DNA of 30,107 bases from a virus (lineage: Duplodnaviria; Heunggongvirae; Uroviricota; Caudoviricetes). The DNA lies in IMG/VR virus record IMGVR_UViG_2698536535_000005, positions 1 through 30,107 of that record. One strand, 5' to 3'. Under the pieces are notes generated by a model. It was not told the DNA's origin. It was given only the letters and a program-made list of their open reading frames with translations, and ran no database searches. Positions 7,349 to 29,051 of this stretch are shown piece after piece; position 1 is the stretch's first letter; every line of letters begins with the position of its first letter. The translations under genes and the position numbers were made by a program.

Positions 7349-7352
7349 AACC

Positions 7353-9811: not shown

Positions 9812-9816
9812 TAACG

Positions 9817-11920: not shown

Positions 11921-11931
11921 ACAATCCGTGC

Positions 11932-11960
11932 AAAGCCCCTTAGTAAGGGGCTTTTATATA
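11932..11960 (+). terminator. intrinsic terminator
   Basis: Perfect inverted repeat AAAGCCCCTTA/TAAGGGGCTTT (11932..11954) followed by a T-rich tail. Confidence 0.55.
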
Positions 11961-11984
11961 TTAATGTTCAACGGGGGGGATTAG

Positions 11985-12308: not shown

Positions 12309-12711
12309 TTAACAAGTTATTATCATGGGGTTTGTGGCTGTTAACCTGCAGTGAGGCGACAATCGTGTATTTATAAAAACTTCCCCTTTTCACTCCCCGC
12401 TGTTTCTTCTGCTATTTCCTTTATGTTTGCATGCAGCAACATCTACCATACCTTTGCAGAAAAATCAGAGCATTTAGTGCCGAAGGTTGGTTTATTGATG
12501 CTTTTTGTTTCATTTATTGCAATTATTGTCATTCAGAAGGGATCATCATGAAAAATCACGGAGTAAAGCCAGTTTTACTTTCCCGGGGGCAGATCGAAGC
12601 CCTGTAACGTATCCAGGCCGAAAAGCGTCAGAAATCTGTGCTTGGTGTGGCACCGTCGATTCATGTTATTGCCCGGCAACTGATGGATAAGGCACTTAAA
12701 GAGGTGAGGCT

Positions 12712-12984
12712 GTGAAATTAAATATCAGTGTGGATAAACGCCAGCTATGGCAGAAAAAAGAGAACAGCGAGGCATTCAGGGCTTTGCTGGTGGAAAATCT
12801 TCGGCACCGGTTCAGTGGAGAGTTGCCTGATGCACTGGGGAAGAAACTGGAATCCCTGACGGTGGAAATTGGCGATTATGGCTTTGTTGATGTTGAAAGC
12901 ACGACTGCCAACACAGAAATCGTAAAGCAGGTCGTCAATGATGTAATGAAAACCACGCTTAGCCAGCCATCCTGGCGCAACTGA
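12712..12984 (+). CDS. hypothetical protein
   Basis: 90-aa ORF with GTG start after GAGGTGAGG; no recognisable motif. Confidence 0.35.
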   Translation: MKLNISVDKRQLWQKKENSEAFRALLVENLRHRFSGELPDALGKKLESLTVEIGDYGFVDVESTTANTEIVKQVVNDVMKTTLSQPSWRN

Positions 12985-13083
12985 ATCAGTAAGGGGCGGT
13001 TATTGCCCCTTTCCTCCATACCCACAACGCATTCCCTTTTCGCATGAAATTATTTTTTATCGTATATGCATGAGGTGAGTTAC

Positions 13084-13608
13084 ATGTTGATGAGTAAAGC
13101 CGAATACGCCAAATACAAAGGCGTAAGCCGCCAGACAGTTTACGACTGGATCGAGAAAGGCGAAGTGATCATGTCTGGCAAAAAAATTGATGTGGAGGCG
13201 ACAGAGCAGCGGAACAGCCCACCGGCACAGGGGAAAGACACCGTTTCTGAAATGTGGCCAGAAAGAACGCTGGAAATGACGTGGGGCGAGTTCTGGAAAG
13301 CAGTTAAGGCCAGAGACGGTAAAATCCCTGCGCCAGTAACGGACGACGACATACAGCAACGTGTGCTGGATGCAGCCGGGGAATTAGACTGGGAAGTGCA
13401 ATTTCTTGATGATGGCGGGATTTGGATGGATGACGGCGATGCTGAGTTTTATTTCGAGCAATATGATCTCAGGCAGAATGCCGAACTGGTGATTGGTACG
13501 CTGCGACGTGAGGTCTGTTATGTGGCTGATGCTTGTCCTGACGAGCTGGATAACTGGAGCGAAGCCGGACTAAACGCCCTGGCTGCATGGGAAAAAACAG
13601 GTCATTAA
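13084..13608 (+). CDS. HTH DNA-binding protein with acidic C-terminal domain (possible small-terminase-like or regulatory protein)
   Basis: Start taken at the ATG preceded by GAGGTGA (track ORF starts 13066); N-terminal MSKAEYAKYKGVSRQTVYDWIEKGEV is a phage-type helix-turn-helix; repeat array immediately downstream. Confidence 0.55.
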   Translation: MLMSKAEYAKYKGVSRQTVYDWIEKGEVIMSGKKIDVEATEQRNSPPAQGKDTVSEMWPERTLEMTWGEFWKAVKARDGKIPAPVTDDDIQQRVLDAAGELDWEVQFLDDGGIWMDDGDAEFYFEQYDLRQNAELVIGTLRREVCYVADACPDELDNWSEAGLNALAAWEKTGH

Positions 13609-13615
13609 CGGCCGC

Positions 13616-13821
13616 AAAAAGTGTCAAGTTGAGCAGCTTGCCAGGTTGGCACTTTACACTCTGAACACGAAAAAGTGTCAACCTCGCTGTAAACCCTGCC
13701 ATTACTGGCCTTGAGCCATATTTACCACGCCAGAAACCCGTGAAAACCGCGAAAAGTGTCAAGTTGTCATGCTTAGAAATGCCAGGGTTTTTCGCGAAAA
13801 AGTGTCAAGTGTGTCAACCTG
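13616..13821. repeat. array of AAAAGTGTCAA boxes (putative protein-binding sites)
   Basis: Five GTGTCAA cores at 13621, 13675, 13756, 13803 and 13811, most preceded by an A-run, between the HTH gene and the next small ORF. Confidence 0.6.
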
Positions 13822-13850
13822 CGATATTAAGATTTCCTAAGGTGTAAACC

Positions 13851-14045
13851 ATGACCATCACCGAAGCCGATTTGCTGGATATAGTGCGCAGCGTGGCTGG
13901 AATTAGCGAATTGCCAAAGAAAGCCAGATTTGCCGATTATGCGGACGTGGTAGCTGCTGCAATGCAGCTAGAAGATCATGCTCCGAATGAAGGAGATTTG
14001 CTGCATATCCGCATCCGATCGGCGGCGATACTGGCAGCCCGTTGA
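13851..14045 (+). CDS. small hypothetical protein
   Basis: 64-aa ORF; weak support only. Confidence 0.3.
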   Translation: MTITEADLLDIVRSVAGISELPKKARFADYADVVAAAMQLEDHAPNEGDLLHIRIRSAAILAAR

Positions 14046-14399
14046 CGCCACCAGCATAGAGAGAACGCCGTGCCTTACGAGTGGAAGAAACCGGACATGC
14101 TGCGGCGATAACCCGTTGATTAAAAGACGGCTCAAAATTGAGCCGGGTAGCAGTTTGTCTGATTTATGCGTTTAGTTGTTGATATTGCCGATGACGAAAA
14201 ATTGCACTCTGTAGCTAGTGGGCGTTTATGTTGAAAACTGCCGATTCTGATAGGCTTTTATCATGCACTTGCATGAAAACTGCTCTGTGTAGCGGGCAGG
14301 CCTGCTGGGGAGAGCATTGCGCGCTTTAGTAGCAATAAAACACATCAATAAGGCTTTTTATTTTCTTGTATTATAAAATTATACTTATTATCTTGTTGA

Positions 14400-14429
14400 T
14401 TGACAGATAAAAACAAGGGATATGCATAA
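14400..14429 (+). promoter_or_regulatory. candidate sigma70 promoter for the 14433..16852 operon
   Basis: TTGACA (14400..14405), 18-bp spacer, CATAAT (14424..14429); so close to the ATG that either the transcript is near-leaderless or another promoter is used. Confidence 0.25.
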
Positions 14430-14432
14430 TAA

Positions 14433-15122
14433 ATGAACAAATCACCTACTGAGATAATTAATATGCTAAGCGATAAGTTCAATAGTAACTTTCGTGAATG
14501 GCAGGGCATACAAGATAAAAAATTAGATAAAGTAATTATCTCAATTTTCACTCTTAACACGATTGCTGAAATTTTGAATAAAAAGAAAACATCAGTTCAT
14601 CATGATGTTTGTATTAAAATTTTTAGTGAGATTATTGCTGATACGTCATCTTCTTTATATCTTTCTGCCTGTGCCATAGATAAACCAGCTAATATTGTTC
14701 TAAGGAGAGTTTTGGAACTAGGTGTCGCATCTATTTATCTTTGGGATATGCCTCATGTTGTATATTCTTGGAAAAATCATGATGAAGACTTAAGTTTCAG
14801 TGATATGTTGAAGCATATAACAAATCAAGGCTATATAGACTACTTCACAGAAAATGAGAAGATAGGAGGGAAAGTATGTGTTATTGATATGAGAAGAGCA
14901 CAGAAAATTTATGGACAATTAAGTGATATCGTTCATGGAAAAATAACCTCATTTGAAACTGATTTGCCTAATAAGTTCACTTTTGAAAGTGAAGATTGGG
15001 AGAGGTTCATAGGTCTGGCTGAGGTTGTTTTGGGTATGATAATTAATTCCAATATTGTTCGTCATAAGATAAGAAAAGAAGTGCTATCTTCATTTCCTAA
15101 ATCTAGTGAGGTAGTTTTATAA
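14433..15122 (+). CDS. hypothetical protein, component A of candidate two-gene system
   Basis: 229-aa ORF, strongly AT-rich; stop overlaps the start of the downstream ATPase gene (TAATG); no recognisable catalytic motif. Confidence 0.7.
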   Translation: MNKSPTEIINMLSDKFNSNFREWQGIQDKKLDKVIISIFTLNTIAEILNKKKTSVHHDVCIKIFSEIIADTSSSLYLSACAIDKPANIVLRRVLELGVASIYLWDMPHVVYSWKNHDEDLSFSDMLKHITNQGYIDYFTENEKIGGKVCVIDMRRAQKIYGQLSDIVHGKITSFETDLPNKFTFESEDWERFIGLAEVVLGMIINSNIVRHKIRKEVLSSFPKSSEVVL

Positions 15123-16852
15123 TGTCTATGTTAGACACTGAGTTATTACATGCAGCACGTACCGAAGATCTTGAGTTGAAACAGGTCAAACAACTGGCTG
15201 TTCTTGGTGAGTTTGAAAAAGATGTTGTAGCAAAACTAAAAATAGCGGGCTCTCATCTGATTCAGGGTGCCAGAGGAATTGGAAAGTCTATGCTTCTAAG
15301 AGCGGCAGAAGCTGAATTAGATAGTGATTTTCCTGTTAAAAAGATTGTGGGGGTATATGTTAATTTCAAAACCAGTACTTTGCTGGAAGGGGTTAAAGCT
15401 GACAATAAAAATGCATTTCAGATATGGGTAAGCGCTAAGTTACTACAAGCTTTGTACGAAAAGTTGATATTTTTAGATGTCATTCGTGACAATAATAGCA
15501 GTGATCCATTTCAAAGAATTTTTGGGATTAAAACTATAACTGGAATGAAAGATGCTCTACAATCTAAAATTCATCTGCTTCAAAGGTTATCAAGAGATCC
15601 TTCTTCAGATAAATTGTTGAATGAAATTGGAGAGGATTTTTTAGATAAGGTTAATGATATAAGTTATGTAAATGACATCATCAAGGAGATAATTCAAGAA
15701 TACCAACTTAATAGAATTGTTTTTTTATTTGATGAGGCTGCTCATACCTTTATACCAGAACAGCAGGAAATATTCTTCGAAATATTTAAATTGCTTCATG
15801 GCGGTAAAATTGCAGTTAAGGCGGCTGTATATCCGTCAATTACATCGTATGGTAAAAATTTTGAAGTTGGTCAAGATGCCATGATGATAAACCTCGGAGG
15901 ATACGAAACTGGAAATATTGGGCGGGAACGAACACGACGTTTATATCGTGATCTATTAGATAAACGGGTCACACAAGGAGCAGCAAAAAAGAGAATATTG
16001 GCTAAAGGTGATTTGCTAGATCAATGTATTCATCTTTCATCCGGAAACCCTAGAGCATTTCTCCATTTATTTAATAAAGTATATGAGAAAGGTTATACTG
16101 AAAGAGATCTTTTAACTTGCACTCAGGATTATGTCAATCAAGAATTATTACCTTATCATTTAGGGCTTTCAAAACGATTACCTAAGTATTCTCACCATGT
16201 TCGCATTGGACTTGATATTCTTAGGGAGTGTATTATCCCTGAGCTTAGATTGAAAAATAACAGAGAGAAAAAGACTCAAACCCAATCTGCTTTTTTTGTT
16301 CTTCCTCCCGTTATTTCTCCAAATCTTAGATTGTCTCTAGATTTGCTTTGTTATTCTGGTGTTCTTTCCAAGCAAGGGTCCGTGAAGATGTCTAATCGAA
16401 AATCGGGTCAGCGCTACATGGTTAATTTATCATTACTTTTCACTGAAAAAGCATTCGTATCTAATAAGTTCGGGGAGATAATAACACTATTATCTCTCGC
16501 TGATTATAAAGAATTTGGCGCAGCAGATTCTGAATTAGAGCGTTTTTTAGAAAAATTGAAAGAATCAGCTGATGAGTGTCAAACTTGTTCCGCTGAGTTA
16601 CCTGGAGATGCGAAGTTTTGTCCTAAGTGTGGGACACCTGTACCAACAAGGTCAATTGTAGGACAACTTCTTGATGATCCGGTTAGTTGCTTGTCAATTA
16701 GTAACGCAATATGCGACCGAATAAAAGAAACCTATCCTAAAGTGGGTGATATCGTTCACTGTTCGAGGGATGATCTGAAAAAAATACCGTACATTAAAAA
16801 TGTTAGGTCAAAAATAATCAAGAACGCAGCGGATGAATATATCTCAGGCTAA
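15122..16852 (+). CDS. Orc1/Cdc6-like AAA+ ATPase with C-terminal zinc ribbon and HhH (RNA polymerase alpha-CTD-like) domain, component B
   Basis: 576-aa ORF; Walker A GARGIGKS, Walker B IVFLFDEAAH, sensor-2-like SGNPRAF; C-terminal CQTC-x11-CPKC zinc ribbon; last ~60 aa resemble the RpoA alpha-CTD; GAGG Shine-Dalgarno; terminator downstream. Confidence 0.8.
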   Translation: MSMLDTELLHAARTEDLELKQVKQLAVLGEFEKDVVAKLKIAGSHLIQGARGIGKSMLLRAAEAELDSDFPVKKIVGVYVNFKTSTLLEGVKADNKNAFQIWVSAKLLQALYEKLIFLDVIRDNNSSDPFQRIFGIKTITGMKDALQSKIHLLQRLSRDPSSDKLLNEIGEDFLDKVNDISYVNDIIKEIIQEYQLNRIVFLFDEAAHTFIPEQQEIFFEIFKLLHGGKIAVKAAVYPSITSYGKNFEVGQDAMMINLGGYETGNIGRERTRRLYRDLLDKRVTQGAAKKRILAKGDLLDQCIHLSSGNPRAFLHLFNKVYEKGYTERDLLTCTQDYVNQELLPYHLGLSKRLPKYSHHVRIGLDILRECIIPELRLKNNREKKTQTQSAFFVLPPVISPNLRLSLDLLCYSGVLSKQGSVKMSNRKSGQRYMVNLSLLFTEKAFVSNKFGEIITLLSLADYKEFGAADSELERFLEKLKESADECQTCSAELPGDAKFCPKCGTPVPTRSIVGQLLDDPVSCLSISNAICDRIKETYPKVGDIVHCSRDDLKKIPYIKNVRSKIIKNAADEYISG

Positions 16853-16892: not shown

Positions 16893-17284
16893 TTATACTT
16901 TTAATGCCCGCCAATGCATTAATTCAATTCTTTGTATTAAATAATTAGATCTATTATAAGCTCTTCTGACTTCATTTCTATCAATATGAGATAATGACGT
17001 CTCTATTGCATCTGAATTAAACCCTGCTTCATTTAAAGTTTTACTCGCAATAGAACGCATCCCATGGTAACTAGCTTTCCACCGTAACCAATTCATTTAA
17101 GAGCAGCATTAGCCGTTTGACTATTCATTGGTTGCATAGGATCGTTTCTGCTAGGGAATACATATTCTCGATGACTACTAATAGGTTTCATCACATCCAG
17201 AAATTCTAATGCCTGTGGAAATAAATGAGCAATGTGTTTCCGGTTAGCCTTCATCCGTTCGGTGGGAATTGCGGAGGGCAGCAT
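16893..17284 (-). pseudogene. integrase remnant (C-terminal part of a P4-type tyrosine recombinase, frameshifted and 5'-truncated)
   Basis: Two adjacent minus-strand ORFs (16893..17096, 17093..17284) together align with the C-terminal ~130 aa of the integrase at 1611..2825 (FPSRNDP vs FPGRNDP; HIDRNEVRRAYNRSNYL vs HVDKNSIRGTYNHAQYL); no N-terminal half is present. Confidence 0.7.
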
Positions 17285-17680
17285 AAATGCAGAGGGAAAT
17301 CTGCAAATCCTAGGCTGGCCTTGCCATAAAGCGAAGACGGCGCGGGAGCATACAAGATGATAATTATTATTAGTAACAAAGGGGAGGGCGGGTCAAATCT
17401 CTGTACCCCTAGCTGTTCTGGACCGCCTGCCTCGTCAAATTTTTACACCCGCAAAATTAAAAAAAATACTTCACGCTGGTGGTTATCCTTGGGCATCCAC
17501 TAGCCTTTCATCATTGACTGCTGGTGAGGCTGAGACTCGAAGAAAAAGAGTGCTAGAGAGTCGGTTTTTGCACAGTTTGGGGTAAGGGAAAATTTATTGG
17601 GGGTACATTTGGGGGTATATATAAAAATGCAATGTAAAAATGTCATTAAATATCAATGCGATTGTTGTTTGTGTTTTGTT

Positions 17681-17696
17681 CCTATTATCGCACCAT
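17681..17696. repeat. attR core: degenerate direct repeat of the thrW 3' end
   Basis: CCTATTATCGCACCAT matches tRNA positions 1429..1445 (CCTATTATCGGCACCAT) except for one deleted G. Confidence 0.6.
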
Positions 17697-18302
17697 CAAG
17701 AAAATCAATAACTTAGCTTAACTTCTCTAAGAAATTGTATCTTCTGTTATCACTTACAAACGCCTATACGTTGTTATGGGCTTTGGTAGTGTAACACGTA
17801 TGGGCGAGTAGTTCCCAGGCTCAACCTCGTAACAAGTTCCTTTGAAGCTGGAAGACGTGCCACCGTCTCTAAACCTTCTACCAAAACTCTTAGCAAGATG
17901 TTCCACACCTGGCGCGGTGTCCAATGATGCTACACGTCGAGATGACGTCGCAGAGGATAAACAGGCTAAATGATGGGAAGAGTTTTAAGTGCAATAGTGG
18001 ATTAAAGCCCACCTCTTCAAAACCTAACTTGATCGGGAAAGAATCAAGCTCTAGCACGGTTTCGTCCACCGGAGTACAACGGGTGCCTGATAAGAGAAGA
18101 ACTGCTAAGACTTCATAGCTTTTGTGAAAAAGCCCTTTTTAGTGGATATGCCTACGGCGCTTATTTTTTGGTATAACCATCAAAGGCGCTTTATGGCTCC
18201 TATTGTCTTGAAAATGTATCTTTACTTGTATTGTGTTTTATGCGTAGTCTCCCTGTGTAGTATGTAACTTGTTAATTTTCATATGAATACAGAGGCAACA
18301 CG

Positions 18303-18455
18303 ATGAAAAACATTGCAGCTATAAAACGTAATAACCGCAAGATTCACGCTCGTAAGTTCCTGTCTACGCCAGAGGGAAAAGCCTGGCTAGAGCGTAAACA
18401 GCGAGAGAACGAAGAAAGAAAACTCCTTAGTGAGTTGAAATGGCTTAAGGATTGA
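18303..18455 (+). CDS. small basic hypothetical protein (50 aa)
   Basis: MKNIAAIKRNNRKIHARKFLSTPEGKAWLERKQRENEERKLLSELKWLKD; AGAGG Shine-Dalgarno 8 nt upstream; below the ORF-track cutoff. Confidence 0.25.
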   Translation: MKNIAAIKRNNRKIHARKFLSTPEGKAWLERKQRENEERKLLSELKWLKD

Positions 18456-19005
18456 ATCACCAGTAGGCGCATAACACATCCAGCAATCAAAGATGTGTTT
18501 GTGCGCCTGATAGTGAAATTATTAAAGTTTTTTAGTTAATGTAGCCATTGCATGAACGATGATCGCTAGTGAATCGATTTTATCTCGAGGGGTAAAATAG
18601 ATGAGGTATATGATGGTAACAATTACAGCTAAAGTAATTGTGGTTCTGCAGGTTTTTAAAATGGATAAGATAAAGCGCATAGATACCCCCTATTGATTTA
18701 ACAACAACAAGGTATCATTTATTTTTTATTGCATGCAATGTGCAAATTTTCACATATAATAGCTTACTATTCACTTTGCATGGTGTCAACAAGATGATGT
18801 GTTGTTTTGTTTGATTTGTTCAAGATAATATTTCATTTTCTCATCTATATAACTTGTGTTTTAGATAATTTCACTAATTGTAAAAGTTACGTATTGCTTA
18901 ATAGCTGCCTTTTTATCTGAAATCGGCGCAAACGTGATCAATGTTTAACGCGAAGATCAGCGGCGTCAGGTCCACGCAGCGACAATTCTCAAATATCAGG
19001 AGGCA

Positions 19006-19563
19006 TTACGCTTCCTGCTCTTTCTTGATACGTTGCACCGTCTGTGTGCTGACACTGAAATCTTTTGCTACGCTCCGAATTGATCCACCATTCGCGAGAG
19101 CGGCAACAATTCCCGCTCGATCAATTGCTTTTCCATTACCACGTTTTGCTATACGTCCAGCGGCCTTAGCTGCGGCAATCCCCTCACGTTGCCGCTCAAG
19201 CATCATTTCACGTTCCATTTGTGCCACTGCTGCAAGCACTGTGAGCATCATATTCCCTGCGGGAGAGTTCTTCCCTGTCTTAAAGTCTTCTTTATGGAAA
19301 TGCACAGACACGCCGCGCTCTGTTAATTGCTCAACCGTTGCCAGTAGGTCGGCTGTATTACGGCAAAGTCGATCAATGCTGTGAACATGCAAAACATCAC
19401 CTTCACGCACATAGTTCATCATTGCCTCAAACTGTGGGCGCTGGGTATTCTTGCCTGACGCTTTATCTTCAAAGACTTTATCAAGAGTTACTCCAGCTAA
19501 TTGACGGTCTGTGTTTTGTTGGACAGTCGATACCCTAATGTATCCAATATTAGCCATTTTCAT
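19006..19563 (-). CDS. serine recombinase (resolvase/invertase family)
   Basis: 185-aa protein; N-terminal catalytic motif GYIRVSTVQQNTDRQ with the nucleophilic Ser; small-recombinase length with C-terminal HTH-like region (GGSIRSVAKDFSVSTQTVQRI). Confidence 0.85.
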   Translation of the reverse strand: MKMANIGYIRVSTVQQNTDRQLAGVTLDKVFEDKASGKNTQRPQFEAMMNYVREGDVLHVHSIDRLCRNTADLLATVEQLTERGVSVHFHKEDFKTGKNSPAGNMMLTVLAAVAQMEREMMLERQREGIAAAKAAGRIAKRGNGKAIDRAGIVAALANGGSIRSVAKDFSVSTQTVQRIKKEQEA

Positions 19564-19584
19564 TTTCCTTCTGTGTTGATTTGT

Positions 19585-19688
19585 GTGTAGTGATTATTGA
19601 TCGTGTTGATTAGGTGTGTAAAGGACTTTTTTCACTACGAAATTCGAAGGTTTTTAGTGTGGTGATTTAGCCTGCTTTATCACTACAC
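19585..19688. promoter_or_regulatory. putative res/recombination site upstream of the serine recombinase
   Basis: Four related half-sites: GTGTAGTGA (19585..19593), TCACTAC (19632..19638, inverted), GTGTGGTGA (19657..19665), TCACTACAC (19680..19688, inverted). Confidence 0.4.
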
Positions 19689-20085
19689 GTCTTGCATGAG
19701 AATCATGTAGTTATGTTTTGGTAAAATTAGCAAGCTATTAAATAGCGTGTTTATTTTGAAAAAATTAATTTTTTCAACACGTGAAAGGAACTTGTTCGAC
19801 AAATAATAGATTGATTTTTAATCAACAATTTCTGATAGTGCTCTGTAAGCCACATTACACAAGGCGCAGCGAAAGTGATGTAAAAGTGAAGAAAGCTAAC
19901 ATTGCACTTTTAAGCTACTTTTCATTGAATTTTTAGTATGGAATTACATAGGGATTAATCATCAATTAATCTTGAATTTAAGCCTGTTTTAGATGTTTAA
20001 TTTTTGATAGCAAGAAACACTTTTAGAAGATCATTGCACAGATGTTATGTGATAAATGGATGTAACGGTAGGTCACTGTGAACTA

Positions 20086-20222
20086 CCCCCCACAGAATTC
20101 TGTTATCCTTAACTTTTAAAGAAATATGCACCCTAACAGAAAACTGTTACCCCAACCCTAACAGAATTATGTTAGACACCCCCACAGAAAACTGTTAGCC
20201 ACCCCTACAGAATTTTGTTACC
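20086..20222. repeat. five palindrome-containing iterons (consensus about CCCYAACAGAAWWCTGTTA)
   Basis: Units at about 20086, 20129, 20154, 20180 and 20203; the last four tandem with a ~24-bp period; each contains ACAGAAnnCTGT-type inverted repeat (ACAGAATTCTGT is a perfect palindrome). Confidence 0.7.
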
Positions 20223-20909
20223 TATTAGATCAACTATCAAACTACAATTAAATTATCTTTTATAAATTCTTTTATCTTTAAAGAATAATTATAGGGATAC
20301 CCGTTAGGGGAGTCTTCGACTATCCCTTAATCTATTGGCATTCGCCAGAACCTTGCACAAGTTAGAGTGTTAGTCGTTAGACTGCTTGTCATAACACATA
20401 GTTTTTTGTTTGTTGATGTTAGTTAGTAGATCTATGTTCGCTAATGCCGCTCACAACGAATATGTAATCTACTATGTGCAAATAGCCTACGGCTTGCGTA
20501 AGGCTAAATAGTCTTGCGCTGTGCGCAGAACGATAATTAACTAACTACCATCTAACGATCATCAATCTATTTAAGAGAAAATCTATTGTGCAATACTCTG
20601 ACGAGTGCAATAACCTTGTGTGCTACGCGTTAGCGATGTTAGCACATAGACACAGACAACAACCAACAACAAACAAAAAAGAATGGTTTTAGTAGTTGAA
20701 GGTTAAATAAGATTCTACCGCTTAAATCAAGCCGTAGGCGAGCTAAACAGCCATTACATAAGGGAATGTATTGTTTTTATCAAAACCTCGTTAGAACGCG
20801 TTTTAGAGCGTTTTAGACAATAATAAAGAATAGCACTACACATGAGAGCACGAATTGCTAAGAAATATCATAACTTACTGAAAATCATCAATATTTATAT
20901 GGATAGGGG

Positions 20910-20938
20910 TTGACAAAAGCTTTTAGTCGTGGTAAAGT
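20910..20938 (+). promoter_or_regulatory. candidate sigma70 promoter for the rightward small-gene operon
   Basis: TTGACA (20910..20915), 17-bp spacer, TAAAGT (20933..20938), about 120 nt upstream of the 21059 ATG, which has an AGGAGG Shine-Dalgarno. Confidence 0.4.
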
Positions 20939-21058
20939 AATATTAGGGACAGAAAACATTCTTATCCTCTAAGTAATTAAACCAATGCACCGCACTTTGA
21001 AGCCCAAGGCTTGCAAGGTGTCTTTTTCTTTTAACCAAATAGAATAGGAGGTTAATTA

Positions 21059-21259
21059 ATGAAGTATTACACTCCACAGGATGTAATCGAAGCCTGGAAA
21101 CGTGGTGAGATCAATCGTTTTAAAGTAAGGATGAACAGGAACACAGCGCGACGCTGTGGTTATCCAGAGCGTGAAAAATGCTTTGACGATGCACTAAAAA
21201 TTATTGATGAATTAAGAAAAAATGAAAAAGGATCTGAAAAAGAATCTGAAACAGAGTAA
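21059..21259 (+). CDS. small hypothetical protein
   Basis: 66-aa ORF with perfect AGGAGG Shine-Dalgarno. Confidence 0.5.
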   Translation: MKYYTPQDVIEAWKRGEINRFKVRMNRNTARRCGYPEREKCFDDALKIIDELRKNEKGSEKESETE

Positions 21260-21278
21260 AGAAGAGAAGGAGAAAACT

Positions 21279-21449
21279 ATGAGCGAAACTACAGAAAAGA
21301 AAAGACAACCACGCACTTGCTTTCATATTCCTGATGAAGTATTTCAGGTGTTGTTTAAAGAAGCCAGAAGTAAACGTATCACTGTTACAGATTACATTCT
21401 TGATATGTTGAAAAGAGAGGCTGAAACACTCTCAAACAAAAGCAAGTGA
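21279..21449 (+). CDS. ribbon-helix-helix-like small DNA-binding protein (tentative)
   Basis: Start taken at the ATG preceded by AAGGAG (track ORF starts 21222 and overlaps the upstream gene); segment RTCFHIPDEVFQVLFKEARSKRITVTDYILDMLKRE fits the RHH strand-helix-helix pattern. Confidence 0.45.
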   Translation: MSETTEKKRQPRTCFHIPDEVFQVLFKEARSKRITVTDYILDMLKREAETLSNKSK

Positions 21450-21502
21450 TTTTTATCACCATAGTAGCGCCGTAGAGCGTGATTACATCAAGGAGATTTT
21501 TA

Positions 21503-22072
21503 ATGATTAATGAAGAACAATTTGTAAAAGTTCCTATGTGGATTCTAAAAATAAGCCAAGTAAACGGGCATAAATTTACAGATAGTGCTAAAAACCTTTA
21601 CTGCTATTTGAGAGGGTTTGATCGTGCATTTCCCTCTTACGCTAAGATAGGCGATGTTTTTGGCATAACACCAAGAGCAGCAGAAGAAAGGGTTAAGAAA
21701 TTGCTCGAAATGGGATTAATTATAAAAGATGCACGACCAGGAAGCTCTAACCTTTATCGAGTGCTTGATATTCCAAAAGGAGAATCATCACTACCTGATC
21801 CTTCTGAGAAAGAAGACGAATCTAATGAAATATTGAATGTTTCCGAAATCATCGTTGAAGAAGAAACACAGGAATCAGAGTTCCCTGAGCGGCCCGAAAT
21901 TTTTACTTGGCTTCTTTCCCTTGATAAGAAGAAACCACCGCACGAAGAAACAGAAGATTTTGTAAAACGTGCATTAGATTCAAAGAATATCTATCTTGAG
22001 AAACAGGCTTTTCACGATCTGATAATATCTCTAAGAGAAAAAAGTGAAATATACGATTCAATACCATTCTAA
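21503..22072 (+). CDS. winged-helix/HTH protein with acidic C-terminal region (possible replication initiator or regulator)
   Basis: Start at the ATG preceded by AGGAG (track ORF starts 21479); N-terminal PMWILK...NLYCYLRGF...IGDVFGITPRAAEERVKKLLEMGLI is HTH-like; acidic tail. Confidence 0.5.
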   Translation: MINEEQFVKVPMWILKISQVNGHKFTDSAKNLYCYLRGFDRAFPSYAKIGDVFGITPRAAEERVKKLLEMGLIIKDARPGSSNLYRVLDIPKGESSLPDPSEKEDESNEILNVSEIIVEEETQESEFPERPEIFTWLLSLDKKKPPHEETEDFVKRALDSKNIYLEKQAFHDLIISLREKSEIYDSIPF

Positions 22073-22081
22073 GGAGAATAA

Positions 22082-22351
22082 ATGACTTATAACATCACTA
22101 TAGGAAACAAAACTATTGAAATAACTGAAAGCGGATACAACATTTTAAAAGCTATTTTGGACATAGAGTTCTCACCCCCGACAGTGGTTAGCTTTTGTAG
22201 TTTAGGCGGCTACAGCGCACAACATGTGAATCATTGGTTAAACCATTTTACATCGTTCGGTGTGCTGGATTATGAAGGGATTAACCACACTACATTTCGT
22301 CTTTTGAAATTAAACAAAGATTTTGAATTGTTTATCACAAACAATCAATAA
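22082..22351 (+). CDS. hypothetical protein
   Basis: 89-aa ORF with AAGGAG Shine-Dalgarno. Confidence 0.5.
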   Translation: MTYNITIGNKTIEITESGYNILKAILDIEFSPPTVVSFCSLGGYSAQHVNHWLNHFTSFGVLDYEGINHTTFRLLKLNKDFELFITNNQ

Positions 22352-22447
22352 CAACAGATCGGGCAATACATATGGCAAATGCATTTATGGCGATATTCAT
22401 CGTAACAATGGTATCAAGTTTTTATAATCCACATAAAAAGAAGGAAA

Positions 22448-22831
22448 ATGGGAAGAAAGAAAAAGAACAACTTAAAACGTATTGAAAAAAACAGTAACTT
22501 CAATTCAACAAGACAACGTCCACCGACACACACCAATAACGAAATTCCAGGGGAAGAGATAATATTTATTCTTGAAACAGAATCCCCTGAATTAAGCGAT
22601 GAAGAACAAGAAATAATCAAATCAATGCCAGGCGTTTACTTTCGCCCAAGAACAAGAAAACAAACAATAATTTCTGATGGCACTCTGAAACGTTGGCAGC
22701 TTTTAGGGTTTAGCTCCTATCATCATTTTTTGGGATTTAACGCTTTCAATAATTGTGTAGGTGGTGCATCGGAAGTCGATCTGATGGCTCATTTAGAAGA
22801 TACATTAGCTTCTAACAAACGCTCTAACTAA
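22448..22831 (+). CDS. hypothetical protein
   Basis: 127-aa ORF with AAGGAA Shine-Dalgarno; basic N-terminus. Confidence 0.5.
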   Translation: MGRKKKNNLKRIEKNSNFNSTRQRPPTHTNNEIPGEEIIFILETESPELSDEEQEIIKSMPGVYFRPRTRKQTIISDGTLKRWQLLGFSSYHHFLGFNAFNNCVGGASEVDLMAHLEDTLASNKRSN

Positions 22832-22846
22832 TAAAAGGATGGTCGT

Positions 22847-23092
22847 ATGTATAAGCGCCCAATGAAAATATTCGAAAAAGGAAAAATAATGATTGGCTAT
22901 ATTCAAGAAACACAATTATTTCAGATGATCCTGTCTGATGCAAAAAACTATGCTGAGTTAATCCGACTGGCAAAAGAAACAGAAGACTACGAAGCATTAG
23001 AGCGTTATCGTGATGAAGTGCTGACGCTCAAGACACCTTTTAACATCGTATTGAATATGATTAATGATGCATTACAAGGAGAAGCCGCATAA
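22847..23092 (+). CDS. hypothetical protein
   Basis: 81-aa ORF with AAGGA Shine-Dalgarno. Confidence 0.45.
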   Translation: MYKRPMKIFEKGKIMIGYIQETQLFQMILSDAKNYAELIRLAKETEDYEALERYRDEVLTLKTPFNIVLNMINDALQGEAA

Positions 23093-23403
23093 TGGAAGAA
23101 GATATTAGCAATGCAATGGAACAACTTTTAGATCTGACTATCTCACTACAAACAAGAATAAATCAAGCCTATTCAGATTTATGCGATTACACGCTCTCTC
23201 AATGCGTTATTAGCTTAATGAAGGTGAATGTAAGCCTTGACGATTTTATCTCTCTGGTGAGCGATTTAGAGCTAATTGAGGACGATGCCAAGATGTGCAC
23301 TCAAACCATCACAGACACCGCCAGCACGTTAAAGGCTGCAAGTGAAGAGATTCAGCAATTAGTAGATGATTTAGCAAAAAGTGCTATTCCCTCTAAATGG
23401 TAA
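23092..23403 (+). CDS. hypothetical acidic helical protein
   Basis: 103-aa ORF; start overlaps the previous stop (TAATG). Confidence 0.45.
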   Translation: MEEDISNAMEQLLDLTISLQTRINQAYSDLCDYTLSQCVISLMKVNVSLDDFISLVSDLELIEDDAKMCTQTITDTASTLKAASEEIQQLVDDLAKSAIPSKW

Positions 23404-24391
23404 TGAAAATCATTTGCATTTATATAATAAAAATGTTATATTAGTATTAAGGGTAGATAAAAAGGTTTTGACTGGTGTTAATCCTTCTACTGTCATAAAT
23501 CCCTGCATATGGAAGGTGATAGCCTCAAGGGTTGAGTGGCATTAACCTCTAACAAATATTACCTTCCATCTCTCAAGAAGTTTTAGAATAATCATAACTC
23601 CCTCTTTGATTGTTGATTGTTTCTACGTTGTGTTGATGAATGTTGTTAGGCATTGTGCTTAATTTTGATAAAAGCGGGTAGGTGTTATCTCCTTGCCCTT
23701 CCCGCTCTTATTTTTCATCTATGCTTATCCTAAAGCTCCTTATTTTGTCCGAAAACATTAAAGAGCCTTACACTGATAGTTATATTTTATAACTATTTAC
23801 TAACATCATTAAACTCTTATTTAATGACAGAAGTTAGTAACAGAATAATCTATTAAGTTGTTGTCAAAAAACTATCATCTGCATAGCGTTAGCCGCAAGC
23901 AGAGAGAGTTTAGCTAAGAATTGTGCAATAACCTTTGGAAATATTGATAGCAAAACGGGTTTTATAGACTGCAAATCTATAATCTTTGGTTGTAAAAACG
24001 CTTTTTCTGAAACGGTAGATTATTGTTGGTGTAGTTAATCCCTATTAAAATTTAATCTGTGAGTAGATTGGAATAGTGATTCCTTAAAATCTGACTGGTG
24101 CATCCACACCATGAAAGATAGCGGTTAGCCACCGCACCCGAATAGATATTCCTGATTGATTCCGCATGTTTTCCTAAGAGCATGTTTTCAGGAATATCTG
24201 TTCACCCTTTAAACCTATCTTTAAGCATGTTTAATAAGCATTCTTAGAGATACGTTTAAAACCTCCTCAAGGTTTTACTTATCGCTGTGTATTGCCCGAC
24301 ACGTTAATAAATCCCCCTCGCTATTCTCAGATTGAACCTCTTATAGCCTGGGGGATTTATTAAATTCCAACATAATGGAATCGTTATATAA

Positions 24392-24601
24392 ATGAAACAA
24401 GAAATTATCCTGAAATATGGCAATGAAAAGTTAACACTAACTGAAGATGTGTTGAATGCTACAGCCTACGCGCTTGGTATCACTCCCACAGAATTAAAGA
24501 AACAGTGTGAACGTCTTTATAAGGCTGAAAGCAATAAACCATCTCACCAAGATTTGATTAATGCTAAAGCTCAACAAATCAAACAATCTAAGGAAAAATA
24601 A
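24392..24601 (+). CDS. small hypothetical protein
   Basis: 69-aa ORF; stop overlaps the start of the next gene. Confidence 0.4.
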   Translation: MKQEIILKYGNEKLTLTEDVLNATAYALGITPTELKKQCERLYKAESNKPSHQDLINAKAQQIKQSKEK

Positions 24602-24975
24602 TGGCTATTTTAAAATTAAGCGATGTTTTCCTACATCGTAAAAGCATCACTGACGTAGTGAGCTATGCAACCGACCCTTACGCGGCTGTAGAAAGCAAAA
24701 AATTTGCAGCACTTGCACAAGATGTAACGTGCGGCGACCTCATTGATTCATCCGGCGCTAAATATGTTAGCGGCGCTGATGTTCTTGTCGTTGTGTCTGA
24801 CTTCGTAACTGCTGATTCAAATAAAACAGTTAACGTGCTTCGTGCTAATGCCGGACTCGTTTGCATCAAAGCTGATGCCCTGAATGCCGAAGGCGCTGTA
24901 AAAGAAGCTGCTATTGCAGCTCTCGCTGCTAAAGGCTTCCAGCTTGAAGGCTTCCACTCTGTTTTCACATCTTAA
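24601..24975 (+). CDS. hypothetical protein, possible virion decoration or scaffold-type protein (speculative)
   Basis: 124-aa ORF immediately upstream of a ~340-aa gene, the lambda D-E type arrangement; Ala/Val-rich; no direct motif evidence. Confidence 0.5.
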   Translation: MAILKLSDVFLHRKSITDVVSYATDPYAAVESKKFAALAQDVTCGDLIDSSGAKYVSGADVLVVVSDFVTADSNKTVNVLRANAGLVCIKADALNAEGAVKEAAIAALAAKGFQLEGFHSVFTS

Positions 24976-24991
24976 GAAGGAATAAATAATA

Positions 24992-26020
24992 ATGATTATC
25001 GGAAATGAAGTGGTTGATCTTGCTCCACTGTTCGAATTAAACGACTCACGCAATTACCTACTGTCTACTCTGGATTTTACTGATCCTGTGCCTGTAGAAA
25101 GTCACAAAGTGGCTGTTTCCCAGCTTATCGAGAGCAATGAATCTCTGTTCAACCATCCTACAAGCCGTTTTAGCTCTGAGCATAACGTTACTAAGCGTGA
25201 GAACGGGGAAGAATATCTTATTGAAATCCCGTACTTTTTAAGGGAAGACCTGATCAAACCGCAGGACGTGCAAGGCAAACGCAAAGCCGGAAGCTCTATT
25301 GAAGAAACACTGCCGGATCTGTATGCGGAATATATCGCTAAACACAATGTTGCATTCCAGCGCACTAAAGAAAGCATCCTCGCGGCTTCTCTGTTCTCTG
25401 GCAAGACACACACCCCGAAAACTGACGATGTTCTGATCGATTACAGCACTCTGTTCGGTGTGTCTCCAATGACTGCAACCGTTGACGCATCCAGCACCAA
25501 CACAATGACCGTATTCAAGCAATTTGATCAGATGCATACGGATATGATTGCTAAGGCACAAAGCCAGGCTGCAACCATTGAGCGTGTTGTTGTGTTCTGT
25601 AAACCTGCGGCATTCAACGCTATTCGTTACAGCGTTGGCATGGTTAATGCGTTCCAGTATGCAAGCCCTGTAGACGATGCAAACGTGGTGTTTAATGTGC
25701 GTTCTCTGCTGCCTGGTGTAACTACTTTCACCATTCCAGGAACTAACATTGACCTGATCAAAGTGACTGATCCGCTGCTGCTGGCACATATGACCGCTGA
25801 CGCTGTAGCTATTCCTAAACTTGCTAAGGGGGCAGGTGTTTACCAAGCTATTTTTGGTGCGCCTTCCAGTTCATTCGATCTGCTGTCTCAAGGCGCTAAA
25901 GAGTATTACAGCTATGCTTTCGAATCGAATCGCGGCGACGCAGTGCACGTAGTGACCGAGAATAGCTCGCTTGTGGTTAACCACGGTGTTGGCTTCTCTG
26001 TGCAGATCACAGTAGCGTAA
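24992..26020 (+). CDS. hypothetical protein, possible major capsid-like protein (speculative)
   Basis: 342-aa ORF with strong AAGGAA Shine-Dalgarno; size and position after a ~120-aa gene resemble the lambda gpD/gpE arrangement; similarity to gpE not demonstrable by eye. Confidence 0.55.
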   Translation: MIIGNEVVDLAPLFELNDSRNYLLSTLDFTDPVPVESHKVAVSQLIESNESLFNHPTSRFSSEHNVTKRENGEEYLIEIPYFLREDLIKPQDVQGKRKAGSSIEETLPDLYAEYIAKHNVAFQRTKESILAASLFSGKTHTPKTDDVLIDYSTLFGVSPMTATVDASSTNTMTVFKQFDQMHTDMIAKAQSQAATIERVVVFCKPAAFNAIRYSVGMVNAFQYASPVDDANVVFNVRSLLPGVTTFTIPGTNIDLIKVTDPLLLAHMTADAVAIPKLAKGAGVYQAIFGAPSSSFDLLSQGAKEYYSYAFESNRGDAVHVVTENSSLVVNHGVGFSVQITVA

Positions 26021-26172
26021 AAAGTGTTAAAGACGTTCCCCTACGTCTGGAAATAATCGGGGCAATAAGGGTAAGGGATAATCATATAAGCAAAATATGC
26101 GCTGTCTCTTGCCCTTTTTGTTTTTCTACTGTCTACAAACCTAAATAAAAATATATATGTGAGAGAAAACCA

Positions 26173-26370
26173 ATGAACACAGAAAATTCACAGGCATTAA
26201 TTCTTAAATCTGTAAAAGAACTGGCAGCTATTAGCGATGACTCAATAATCAATGTCAGTGCCTTATGCAGAATGCTTTCAATTGATGCAAATAATGTGCG
26301 TCAGCGTGTCTTTCAGACTGGATGTAGCACTTTCGAAGCAATCCAATATTATTGCTCTAAAAAACAATAA
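26173..26370 (+). CDS. small hypothetical protein
   Basis: 65-aa ORF between two larger genes on the same strand. Confidence 0.4.
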   Translation: MNTENSQALILKSVKELAAISDDSIINVSALCRMLSIDANNVRQRVFQTGCSTFEAIQYYCSKKQ

Positions 26371-26404
26371 CAAATAACAATCATAATACAGGGAAACAAT
26401 TAAC

Positions 26405-28246
26405 ATGTTAGAGCTAAACGTGGCACGCCTCTCGAACGTTGTCACCTTCGAAGTTAACCGACCATCATTAGAGAAAGCAAAAGCAGAAGTAGAAAAACTT
26501 CGTAAACAAATGGCGGCGGTGAAAGATATAGAATTGCGTGTTAAGACACATAAACAATCAACCGCTAAAGCAAAAAAAGACGTAGACGATATTGCTAAAA
26601 AGCAAGCACAGGCTGATAAAGCTAATGCTAAAGCACAATTAGCCGCTCAACGTGTAGTTGCAAGAGAACAAAAAGCCCTGGCAGCACGCAAAGAGAAGGC
26701 AGAATTAAAGCTTTTAGACGTTGGAGCAAGCATTAGTGCAATGCACCGTCTTTCTGTAGCGGAACAATATAAAGCTATTGCACAGGCTAGAGAAATTGCC
26801 CTCCAATATGAAAGAGGCGCTATTAGTCTGGCACGTATGAATAGCCAAATGAAACGCCTACAACAGCAACAACGTAAGATTAATGGCAATCGTAACGCTC
26901 ACGCTAAAGCCTATGCACCTGTTAAGGGTAGCGGGAGTATTGGCGGCGGTGCTGCGGCTGTTATGCTGGGTGGCTTAGGCGCTGGCGCTACGTATATGGC
27001 TATGAGCAAAGCCTCTGAATTTGTTACTAACAGCTTTGCGAATGCTGAAACGCTGGGTGAATTGTATAGCCGTGCGAAGCTGGGCGGTGTAGACGTTAAC
27101 CAGATGAACAATATTGAGCAATGGGCCTACAAAAACGGCGTTGATTCAATGATGGGCGAACAAGGTCGTAGGAAGTATCTCGATCAGATGAAAGATGTAC
27201 GGGAGAAGGCTACTAAATCTTATGATGAGGCTGAATATGTAGTTGATAAGAAAACTGGTAAAGGAGAATGGAAGGGCGGCGATAGCGGCATCAATACTTT
27301 AATGAATGAAGGATTCCTAACTAAAAAGGATCTAAAAGACTTTGCTGATAATCCGGCTGGTCTGGTTAGTAAAGCAGTTCAGGGAATGGTAGCTAAAGGC
27401 TATTCAGATGCACAAATCGGTAGTCGTCTGGAAGATCTGGCTGATGATTTGATGCTCACCTCTAAATACTGGACACGCTCCGCTAAAGAAGTGGAACAAT
27501 CAGCACGAGAACAACGAGAATCAGGGCGCTGGGTAACGCAGGCACAACAGGAAAGCGTTATTAAATTCCGTGAACTGAATAATGCACTTAGTGGGCTTTC
27601 TGACTCACAAGGGATCGCCTTTGTTGATGGCTTTATGAAATCTCTTGATCCGAAAGTGATTGAAGAGTTTAAAAAGAGCATGGTTGCAATGCTGCCAATG
27701 TTTACCAAATTAGGCGAGGCTATCGGCGGATTGGTTAACGCCGTAATGAAAACAATCAACTGGCTGATGAAAAACGACGAGAAGACGGAAGCTATTCAGA
27801 AGAATTTAGGGGATGCACCGCCACTATCTAACGAAGGAATGAAGCAGAATCTTTCTAATCTCACTCCTGATCAATATAAAGGCGCTGGCACCGGAACAAC
27901 TAAGCCAGATAACAGCAATTCCCTGGTTAACACTATTAAAAGCTGGTTTATGCCAGAAGAAACGGTAGGTGGGGCGCAGGCTGTAAATCAATACAGTCTC
28001 GAAGGACAAAATATTGCAAATCTGAAACAGAGTGCAGCACAACAAGCTTTCAAGGCTCCTTCTTACACCTTTGCACCTGTTATTAACTTCAATCCAGAAT
28101 TACAAGTAAATGCAGAAGTGCCGCTAACTATCGAATCAGACACCGGACGATTGAGCGAATTTATCGACTTCAAATCAAAGGCATCTTCCGCTGAGTTTAG
28201 CAAGCTATTAACGCTGGGTGTTATGTCAGGCGGGTCAACCTATTAA
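26405..28246 (+). CDS. large coiled-coil protein with Gly-rich hydrophobic segment (tape-measure-like or internal virion-like; function unknown)
   Basis: 613-aa ORF; N-terminal ~130 aa Lys/Ala-rich coiled coil; GSGSIGGGAAAVMLGGLGAGATYMAM hydrophobic Gly-rich segment; no enzymatic motif. Confidence 0.6.
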   Translation: MLELNVARLSNVVTFEVNRPSLEKAKAEVEKLRKQMAAVKDIELRVKTHKQSTAKAKKDVDDIAKKQAQADKANAKAQLAAQRVVAREQKALAARKEKAELKLLDVGASISAMHRLSVAEQYKAIAQAREIALQYERGAISLARMNSQMKRLQQQQRKINGNRNAHAKAYAPVKGSGSIGGGAAAVMLGGLGAGATYMAMSKASEFVTNSFANAETLGELYSRAKLGGVDVNQMNNIEQWAYKNGVDSMMGEQGRRKYLDQMKDVREKATKSYDEAEYVVDKKTGKGEWKGGDSGINTLMNEGFLTKKDLKDFADNPAGLVSKAVQGMVAKGYSDAQIGSRLEDLADDLMLTSKYWTRSAKEVEQSAREQRESGRWVTQAQQESVIKFRELNNALSGLSDSQGIAFVDGFMKSLDPKVIEEFKKSMVAMLPMFTKLGEAIGGLVNAVMKTINWLMKNDEKTEAIQKNLGDAPPLSNEGMKQNLSNLTPDQYKGAGTGTTKPDNSNSLVNTIKSWFMPEETVGGAQAVNQYSLEGQNIANLKQSAAQQAFKAPSYTFAPVINFNPELQVNAEVPLTIESDTGRLSEFIDFKSKASSAEFSKLLTLGVMSGGSTY

Positions 28247-28293
28247 TCATCACTGTGGGGCGGTTTAGCCCCCTTAAATAAGGATTACAAATT

Positions 28294-28971
28294 ATGGCAA
28301 TGGGTCCGTTAACCATTGGTCGCCCGACTGAGGCGAAAATCAACAGCACAAGCAACGATAGCAACGGTAGAACAACTAAAGGGGGTAACGGCTTTGCGAT
28401 CATTACCTCTAACCTCGGCAGTGGTGCAAATGCTGCTTACAATGACTACCAGGCATTATCATTTGATAGCGTGGAATCGACGAAAATTAGCCGAAATGCA
28501 GACGTTACAAGCTATGCCGTCGAATCAGGATCAGAAGTTAGTGATCATGTTCAAATACGGAATAACAAGTTCACATTACAGGGGCGTATCTCTGAAACAG
28601 TATTGAAGCTCAATCCCGATATGATTAAGAATGCGGGAATTAACGGCAATAGACGTATGCTTATGCTTGAATACCTAAATCAGTTGATGGACAGTCGCCA
28701 ACCTTTCCTACTTGTCACTGAGTTAAAAAATTATGACAACGTTGTGTTAGTTGGCATGTCTTACGAAGAAGAAGCAAGCGAAAGCCTATTGTTTACTCTT
28801 GATTTTGAGCAAATCCGTCTTGTCTCTAAAGCAACTACAAGCGCAATTGCGGTAAAAACAGCACCAAATAAATCTGTAGGAGGTCAGGTTAAAATGCAGG
28901 TAAATACAACAGAACAGAAAAATCAAAAAAGCCCAGGGCAAGACGTTGTAACGCCAGTATTTAAACAATAG
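28294..28971 (+). CDS. hypothetical protein
   Basis: 225-aa ORF with AAGGA Shine-Dalgarno; convergent with the downstream integrase. Confidence 0.55.
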   Translation: MAMGPLTIGRPTEAKINSTSNDSNGRTTKGGNGFAIITSNLGSGANAAYNDYQALSFDSVESTKISRNADVTSYAVESGSEVSDHVQIRNNKFTLQGRISETVLKLNPDMIKNAGINGNRRMLMLEYLNQLMDSRQPFLLVTELKNYDNVVLVGMSYEEEASESLLFTLDFEQIRLVSKATTSAIAVKTAPNKSVGGQVKMQVNTTEQKNQKSPGQDVVTPVFKQ

Positions 28972-29012
28972 CCTTAAACACCTATGAAACGCTCTGTAAC
29001 GAGATAATCATA

Positions 29013-29044
29013 AAAGAGGCATTAGTCTATATTGAAGCCTCTTT
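29013..29044. terminator. possible bidirectional terminator hairpin between convergent genes
   Basis: AAAGAGGC/GCCTCTTT 8-bp stem with a 16-nt loop; weak T tail; low support. Confidence 0.25.
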
Positions 29045-29051
29045 ATTACGT

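Follow-up and report, generated by a model that had tools for sequence, protein, structure and literature searches.

The DNA analysed here, called the window, comprises 30,107 nucleotides (nt), positions 1 to 30,107 of the IMG/VR virus record IMGVR_UViG_2698536535_000005, and its region of interest is a hairpin-rich non-coding module beside a putative replication origin in an integrated element. The window begins in proA, and a tRNA-Thr(CGU) gene at 1369-1444 is followed by two islands in tandem. The second island, referred to here as the element, runs from about 17.65 kb to past the window end (17650-30107 in the window); in strain CAU16175 it is found alone at the same tRNA and is ~12.6 kb long. 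It encodes a small serine recombinase, small + strand genes, a Rep/O-like protein, a tyrosine integrase, a lambda-E-type major capsid protein, a tape-measure-like protein and a Dit-like tail protein, and non-coding DNA makes up about 30% of it. Its proteins include no recognisable terminase, portal, relaxase, primase or helicase, and the element therefore resembles a phage satellite; it looks like an integrative phage- or satellite-like element from a seemingly undescribed phage-satellite family. Part of its sequence is present in 726 of 5426 complete E. coli genomes. The hairpin region sits in a 1.5-kb gap (19564-21058) between the recombinase gene and the early operon.

A repeat search of this gap identified five iterons of 23-24 bp at 20085-20223, each with an internal dyad (TAACAGAAAACTGTTA type), spaced by 44, 25, 23 and 23 bp. 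They are followed by an A+T-rich stretch (20224-20295), in which 61 of 72 bases (85%) are A or T and which is presumed to be the DNA-unwinding element, and by an imperfect palindrome at its edge (20284-20336; inverted-repeat pair I24, arms 20284-20299 and 20321-20336). With at least three dyad-bearing direct repeats beside an A+T stretch, this layout of iterons, A+T stretch and palindrome is that of a lambda-type origin. The iteron origin starts 115 bp upstream of the region 20340-20740, which an earlier note on this DNA had described as structured and non-coding, and is the decisive context missing from that note.

The candidate initiator is a winged-helix Rep/O-like protein of 197 amino acids (21479-22072, + strand), with an N-terminal DNA-binding domain, a disordered acidic linker and a helical C-terminal domain. 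It matched phrog_270, 'replication initiation protein' (1e-8), O-like families (1e-5) and, weakly, PF13730 (HTH_36), and had no match in NCBIfam. The AlphaFold model of Rep has a mean pLDDT of 62, and a fold search with it returned generic winged-helix matches and no significant one; the longest, none of them significant, were to RepA_N-type initiators (4pta, 4pql, 5kbj) and to a Vibrio N-terminal domain (4ro3).

Comparison between copies of the element linked the iterons to Rep. Four unrelated iteron families (ACAGAAnnCTGTTA; AGGAAATGAGTTCC; GTAACGATnnGTTAC; GGTAGGTCACTGTGAGCTA) occupy one slot in the window and in the loci L002, L012 and L016; the three other families replace the block of the window exactly where the Rep allele differs (52-63% identity). 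Iterons and Rep gene are thus co-swapped though ~1.2 kb of conserved sequence separates them, and loci that share only the N-terminal half of Rep (residues 5-103) have the same iteron type. Because iteron family and Rep allele co-vary, which is the best evidence on this point, the iterons are read as the putative binding sites of Rep. The A+T stretch is kept beside all four iteron families, and both this stretch and the module remain 88-100% identical where the Rep alleles share 52-63% identity.

In every relative examined, the module starts where the A+T stretch ends, after the iterons. Of the 5426 complete E. coli genomes, 352 (~6.5%) carry it, and none of these annotates it. Carriers include CAU16175, with a 99.4% identical copy, as well as ST131 and APEC O1/O2 strains. 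Positions 20300-20515 hardly vary between copies that differ in their Rep/iteron cassette. The length of the module is 505 nt in the window, the shortest version known, up to 844 nt in E. coli and ~900 nt in relatives. The window is without a 97-nt module after 20549 that is present in most E. coli-type relatives, and without a 144-nt module after ~20739 that is present in most relatives; both deletions fall between short direct repeats. The earlier note had staked its proposal on conservation among related elements, and the region is indeed kept in them. Its description of the region as free of open reading frames (ORFs) was also sound, the largest ORF being of 34 amino acids and without an ATG start; the G+C content is ~36%.

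The module contains a series of small hairpins. At its start, the hairpin TTGGC-ATTC-GCCAG (20335-20348) matches a GGCG-loop-CGCC hairpin in the same place in relatives. The conserved core (20441-20534, + strand), delimited by a full-length covariance model match, holds CCGCTCA (20447-20453), the hairpin AGCC-TAC-GGCT (20484-20494) and TGCGCTGTGCGC (20515-20526), and is followed by AACTAACTACCATC (20536-20560), a remnant of a block conserved in the alignment of relatives. Further right lies a two-step hairpin, GTGCTA-CGC-GTTA-GCG-ATGT-TAGCAC (20620-20645). Its DNA fold z is near -3 on either strand, and another E. coli-type allele has the same architecture with a different sequence, GCGTTA-CCCC-TTT-GGGG-ATGC-TAACGC. 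In alignments the right end is marked by the motif AGAGCGTTTTA (20805-20815) in subtypes A-C and by AGAGCGTT, without TTTA, in subtype D; in several relatives a stem precedes the motif.

Two long-range inverted pairs had been listed in the earlier note, and both proved perfect and correctly placed: I1 pairs TTTTTTGTTTGTTG (20402-20415) with CAACAAACAAAAAA (20667-20680) over 14 nt, and I2 pairs GCCTACGGCTTG (20485-20496) with CAAGCCGTAGGC (20728-20739) over 12 nt. Both exceed what was found in 300 dinucleotide-preserving shuffles of 20340-20740, where the longest perfect inverted repeat was 11 nt and none reached 12. The arms extend imperfectly to 28 nt for I1 (82% complementary) and to 31 nt for I2 (71%), and additional nested pairs were found at 20338-60/20586-608, 20363-81/20551-69 and 20415-27/20540-52. 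The 421-nt stretch as a whole folded better than its shuffles, with an RNA fold z of -3.3 (+) and -3.9 (-) and a DNA fold z of -3.7 (+).

In the inverted-repeat search, the 5' arm of I1 (20397-20424, around the perfect core) is a low-complexity T/G-rich tract and the 3' arm (20658-20685) is a C/A-rich tract. I1 is therefore a T/G-rich tract facing a C/A-rich one, and its exact cores vary between copies: among the 24 distinct E. coli-type copies compared, the 13-nt core of the 5' arm was present in 21 and that of the 3' arm in 13. The 5' arm of I2 is itself the hairpin AGCC-TAC-GGCT, the counterpart of small G+C-rich triloop hairpins that relatives have there, and its 3' arm (20709-20739) carries a second small hairpin, GCC-GTA-GGC (20731-20739). 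I2 is thus two copies of one small palindromic GCC-NNN-GGC hairpin. Both I2 arms were found in 17 of the 24 copies, and in 6 of the 24 the 3' arm was replaced by AAGCCTCTGGC. The I1 and I2 long-range pairs are absent from three diverged subtypes (B-D). They are probably by-products of repeated hairpin content and of module gain and loss rather than conserved long-range helices.

The same comparison bears on the idea that the repeats bound an invertible segment of the neighbouring serine recombinase, that is, a genetic switch, or form its resolution site. The recombinase (19006-19563, - strand; 185 amino acids) belongs to the resolvase/invertase family (PF00239, 1e-38; phrog_125 'DNA invertase', 2e-62; RefSeq name 'recombinase family protein'); its gene lies 780 bp to the left and is transcribed away from the hairpin region, and the I1 arms do flank a 233-bp segment. 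However, none of the 24 distinct E. coli-type copies, and no relative, has any block in the opposite orientation. The arms lack the dyad symmetry of recombinase sites, 19564-21058 contains no hix/gix-like half-site, and relatives that keep the recombinase have no arms. A switch is thus extremely improbable and, with no inverted segment among homologues, was largely refuted. Hix/gix half-sites across the whole window and inverted repeats around the recombinase gene were at chance level.

Diverged versions of the module were collected from IMG/VR contigs, one Franconibacter genome and, through a conserved 24-mer, 94 metagenome contigs. The 79 distinct sequences of this set, subtypes B, C and D, fall into 14 clusters, with identities as low as 47%, and all of them lie in the same position, straight after the A+T stretch and ahead of the early promoter. 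CCGCTCA (window 20447-20453) and TGCGCYGTGCGC (window 20515-20526) are invariant in the whole set, and AGAGCGTTTTA again marks the right end of the module. Pairing between the two invariant motifs (20449-20458 with 20517-20526) can close the core; alternatively, the second can fold on itself as GCGC-TGT-GCGC. In the hairpins between and around them, the stem sequences differ and complementarity is kept. Examples are CAGCC/GGCUG, UGACC/GGUCA and UGUCC/GGACA; UCGUGC/GCACGA, UUGUGCC/GGCACAA, GUGCAA/UUGCAC and CUUCGUG/CACGAAG; and, as whole hairpins, UUUGCC-AUC-GGCAAA, UUCGCC-GUG-GGCGAA and UUACGCC-CAC-GGCGUAA.

Because the hairpins shift register between the diverged sequences, RNAalifold found little structure in their plain MAFFT alignments, and a hand-written structure and a covariance model were needed. 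In an alignment of 12 distant relatives with a hand-written structure, 85% of cells pair, compared with 26-53% when the partners are slid, and the covariation score was 0.212, compared with 0.119 in shuffles, of which 0 of 500 reached 0.212. A covariance model, R1, was built from those 12 sequences only, without E. coli-type or B-type sequences. R1 detected B-type loci at 41.5 bits and matched window positions 20441-20534 over its full length at 25.2 bits (E 0.01, 874 kb searched). Since R1 was built without any E. coli-type sequence, this match places the window in the family. R1 was then used to align 55 distinct sequences, an alignment fitted to the model and biased in its favour; 84% of its cells pair, compared with 22-54% when the partners are slid. 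Pairing reaches 98.5% in one hairpin, all five pairs of which show double changes, and 92.7% in the enclosing stem. On plain MAFFT alignments, double changes were also seen in two further helices of the downstream blocks, which the window has largely lost.

The compensatory changes in the stems of relatives imply that a structured nucleic acid is involved. To that extent the structure claimed in the earlier note is upheld, for small local hairpins and for one closing helix; its two long-range pairs show no such changes. On sequence comparison, the local hairpins and the core-closing helix are the supported elements, and I1 and I2 as helices are not. The conclusion for the family is stronger than any claim on the window's own copy.

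Whether the folded species would be RNA or DNA was considered from the same alignments, and the strand signals (consensus energies, structure conservation index, single-sequence z-scores, G-U versus A-C counts) are contradictory. Consensus folding energies are alike on both strands. In the model-based alignment G-U cells number 42 and A-C cells 42 overall; the enclosing stem favours the + strand, with 9 G-U and 1 A-C, and another helix favours the - strand, with one invariant G-U and a pair that is G-C in 26 and G-U in 24 sequences. The best-supported stems change almost only from one Watson-Crick pair to another, with 11 G-U in ~460 cells, and many loops of the module are of 3 nt. No sigma-70-like or other promoter-like site was found at either edge of the module on either strand in three subtypes. 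Rfam 15 gave no match in 19500-21100 at the gathering threshold or at E up to 5, nor in five diverged relatives at E up to 0.5.

The earlier note had suggested a structured RNA, among other roles, and part of the evidence can be read in that way. The region would then be the gene for a new large structured non-coding RNA (~0.5-0.9 kb), or for a sense/antisense RNA pair, between origin and early operon, which might serve immunity, control replication or interfere with a helper phage; we hold this main rival possible, though rather less than probable. Several stems show compensatory changes with invariant unpaired motifs between them, some loops are of GNRA type (GAGA, GUGA, GUAA), and predicted RNA folds well below shuffles on both strands in 8 relatives as in the window. 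In several relatives a right-end stem is followed by GTTTT(T) on the + strand, and the non-coding share of the element is unusual for phage-like DNA. Set against these points are the bare module edges, the empty Rfam searches even at relaxed thresholds, the rarity of G-U in the best-supported stems and the strand preference that varies by helix; moreover, E. coli copies differ by gain and loss of entire modules, and no publication containing the module sequences was found. A more specific form of the proposal, possible and likewise doubtful, is an unrecognised class of structured RNA with a core closed by CCGCUCA and UGCGCYGUGCGC and a three-way junction, which would control replication or helper exploitation and be specific to a new enterobacterial satellite-like family with its own lambda-E-type capsid, tape-measure-like and Dit-like genes. 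For an RNA immunity of the P4 kind, complementarity of the module with the rest of the element was searched and gave chance-level 10-13-mers only.

The reading favoured here, tentatively and with somewhat less than even confidence, is that the module is a Rep-independent part of the replication origin made of hairpins folded in single-stranded DNA. An origin role is favoured because the module adjoins the unwinding element and is independent of the initiator allele. Single-stranded DNA is favoured because the stems are poor in wobble pairs, many loops are of 3 nt, no promoter was found at the edges and Rfam gave no match, and also because different helices favour different strands. Rep would bind the five iterons (20085-20223) and open the adjoining A+T-rich stretch (20224-20295); as unwinding moved rightwards, the G+C-rich hairpins and the CCGCTCA / TGCGCYGTGCGC core would fold in the separated strands, and host replication proteins could then use the folded strands as sites of entry or priming. 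The folded species would on this reading be DNA rather than RNA, acting in priming or in helicase loading. Single-strand initiation signals next to iteron origins play such an entry or priming role in some plasmids. The module is indifferent to the initiator allele and is therefore expected to face host factors.

Several observations weigh against this reading. Rep is weakly identified as an initiator, with family E-values of 1e-8 or weaker; it is labelled 'transcriptional regulator' publicly and one RefSeq copy is named as LexA-family. The element has no recognisable helicase loader or primase, no sequence similarity to plasmid origins was found, and we know of no protein partner for the module. 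Known single-strand initiation signals are of ~50-150 nt and the module is of 500-900 nt. RNA fold z-scores, -2.3 to -7.9 in the 8 relatives, are more negative for the - strand in 7 of the 8, which would also fit a leftward transcript, and the conserved motif ending in AGAGCGTTTT, which follows a right-end stem, might act as a terminator on the + strand. Finally, the DNA fold of the window core (20441-20534) has z-scores of -1.0 and -0.6, no better than shuffles. The window's copy may be a degraded one, since it is the shortest known, is two modules short and has a core that folds like shuffled sequence.

Taken to its end, the last point would make the window's copy a decaying, non-functional remnant whose repeats are scars of duplication and deletion. 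Its short length, the direct repeats at both deletions, the poor local fold of the core and the insertion sequences (IS elements) that interrupt some copies all fit such decay. It is quite improbable, however, as 20300-20515 is almost identical across copies with Rep proteins of 52-63% identity, every subtype has retained the invariant motifs, even where overall identity falls to 47%, and the same short versions recur in many genomes. Three insertions were recorded: in the locus L046 (3773-4234) a 153-amino-acid - strand ORF lies between the module and the early promoter, in a copy of the element on an IncF plasmid (L156, 9267-10480) an IS3 lies inside the module near window position 20684, and in another genome (L034, 701-1398) an IS1 lies left of the module.

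Among known systems, the origin and O protein of lambda are close in layout. In both, dyad-bearing iterons are followed by an A+T-rich stretch and a palindrome, and, as in lambdoid phages, where the iterons co-vary with the N-terminal iteron-binding domain of O, the N-terminal iteron-binding domain of the initiator co-varies with the iterons. In lambda, rightward transcription passes through the origin, which is part of the O gene, whereas the origin described here precedes both the early promoter and, by ~1.2 kb, the Rep gene. It also has a 0.5-0.9-kb hairpin-rich module that is missing in lambda, and no P-like helicase loader was recognised.

In IncQ oriV (RSF1010/R1162), the opposite-strand hairpins ssiA and ssiB are exposed single-stranded once the initiator melts the origin. 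The order of iterons, A+T-rich stretch and hairpins on opposite strands that appear as an inverted repeat is alike, and the 31-nt I2 arms of the window carry the same hairpin on opposite strands 193 nt apart. Unlike oriV, the I2 arrangement is missing in other subtypes and lost in 6 of the 24 E. coli-type copies, no RepB'-type primase or RepA helicase is found in the element, and the module is far longer. A plasmid search matched only two E. coli records that carry the same element, and no other plasmid sequence.

A non-coding hairpin cluster beside an origin is also a feature of single-strand initiation (ssi) signals and primosome assembly sites (G4-type and phiX174-type; ColE1, R1, R100), which act as folded single-stranded DNA. 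Such signals may lie on both strands, are independent of the plasmid initiator and are typically of 50-150 nt. GAGCGG, the complement of CCGCTC, may resemble the AAGCGG motif reported for PriA sites. The Vibrio phage satellite PLE reportedly replicates from iterons in a sizeable non-coding region with its own winged-helix initiator, RepA. Iterons in non-coding DNA and a winged-helix initiator are common to both systems, but the host differs and there is no sequence relation; we know of no conserved hairpin module reported for PLE. Structured non-coding RNAs of phages and satellites, such as P4 CI RNA (C4 antisense family), ROOL and GOLLD, may have repeated complementary segments in a leader. 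In contrast to these families, which were included in the unmatched Rfam search, the module lies upstream of the early promoter and not in a leader, and no promoter of its own was found.

A different view is that the region functions as double-stranded DNA, as a control or recognition region with sites for early proteins, host bending proteins or a helper terminase, the inverted repeats being sites in opposite orientation. The direct repeats listed in the earlier note share only CGTTAG, and the genuine signal behind them is an excess of the pentamer GTTAG in 20296-20830, where 1.55 occurrences are expected and 9 were counted on the + strand and 2 on the - strand (0 of 1000 shuffles reach 11). 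Motifs like TGTGCAATAACCT recur, one more copy lying at 23920-23935 in a second non-coding gap, and ATTACAYARGG motifs occur on both flanks of the region. Furthermore, an element with capsid and tail genes and without terminase or portal would have to be packaged by another phage, so that a recognition site is needed somewhere. This view does not explain stems that change sequence yet stay complementary at many independent hairpins, and the GTTAG excess and the TGTGCAATAACCT motifs were counted in the E. coli subtype only, the diverged subtypes differing in sequence here. No part of the region is shared with phages in near and distant searches of 50,697 phage records, although short sites below BLAST sensitivity are possible; the lambda-type cohesive-end sequence is absent from the region, and no convincing DnaA box or IHF consensus site was found inside the module. 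A double-stranded site region is accordingly considered unlikely. The packaging site and the origin of transfer proposed in the earlier note fared no better, the first lacking positive support as no sequenced phage matches and the second being unsupported because the element encodes no relaxase. The oriented GTTAG excess is unexplained by the hairpin model and may mark protein-binding half-sites.

With no Rfam, phage, plasmid or literature match, the hairpin module seems never to have been described before, although it lies unannotated in ~6.5% of complete E. coli genomes, within an apparently undescribed element. If it consists of origin signals, it would represent a constant interface with host replication that is kept despite swappable initiator/iteron cassettes, and a defined target for studying how elements without their own primase or helicase loader start replication. 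If it is an RNA, one of the best-studied bacteria would prove to have a new class of large structured RNA. The comparative set of 79 diverged B-D sequences in 14 clusters, 24 E. coli-type copies and the covariance model makes the question directly testable. A literature search returned nothing relevant on the element, on GI-thrW or on the sequences themselves. The K-12 prophage CP4-6 occupies the same tRNA site and carries a different gene set, which made K-12 transcript annotation unusable.

Right of the module, an early promoter directed away from it (TTGACA-17 nt-TAAAGT with TG; 20910-20938, + strand) is kept in relatives. It is followed, within 20910-21058, by a leader of ~85 nt that ends in a terminator-like hairpin and T-run (20988-21032, + strand) just before the first early gene. 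In relatives each arm of the leader hairpin has a compensating one-base deletion, GAAGCC/GGCTTG becoming GAGCC/GGCTG, which points to a genuine terminator or attenuator, or to a short RNA. A hairpin with 17-nt arms and a T-rich run after it on the + strand (19872-19935) lie between the recombinase gene and the iterons; they are kept in the relative L010 and may be the end of a short rightward transcript. A second gene-free gap of ~1 kb lies at 23404-24391 in the element and contains ATTGTGCAATAACCTT at 23920-23935, a motif also present two to three times in the hairpin region.

The first island (~1.6-16.9 kb; 1611-16852) contains a P4-type integrase, an int-alpA RNA motif (2870-2937), a D5-type primase-helicase and cargo genes, and an AntA-like and a ProQ/FinO-family protein are encoded as well. 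Among the cargo genes is a low-G+C pair (14433-16852), with an ORC/Cdc6-like ATPase that has zinc ribbons, and this pair matched no PADLOC model. Between the two islands, two short - strand ORFs at 16893-17284 resemble fragments of a tyrosine integrase and represent a remnant.

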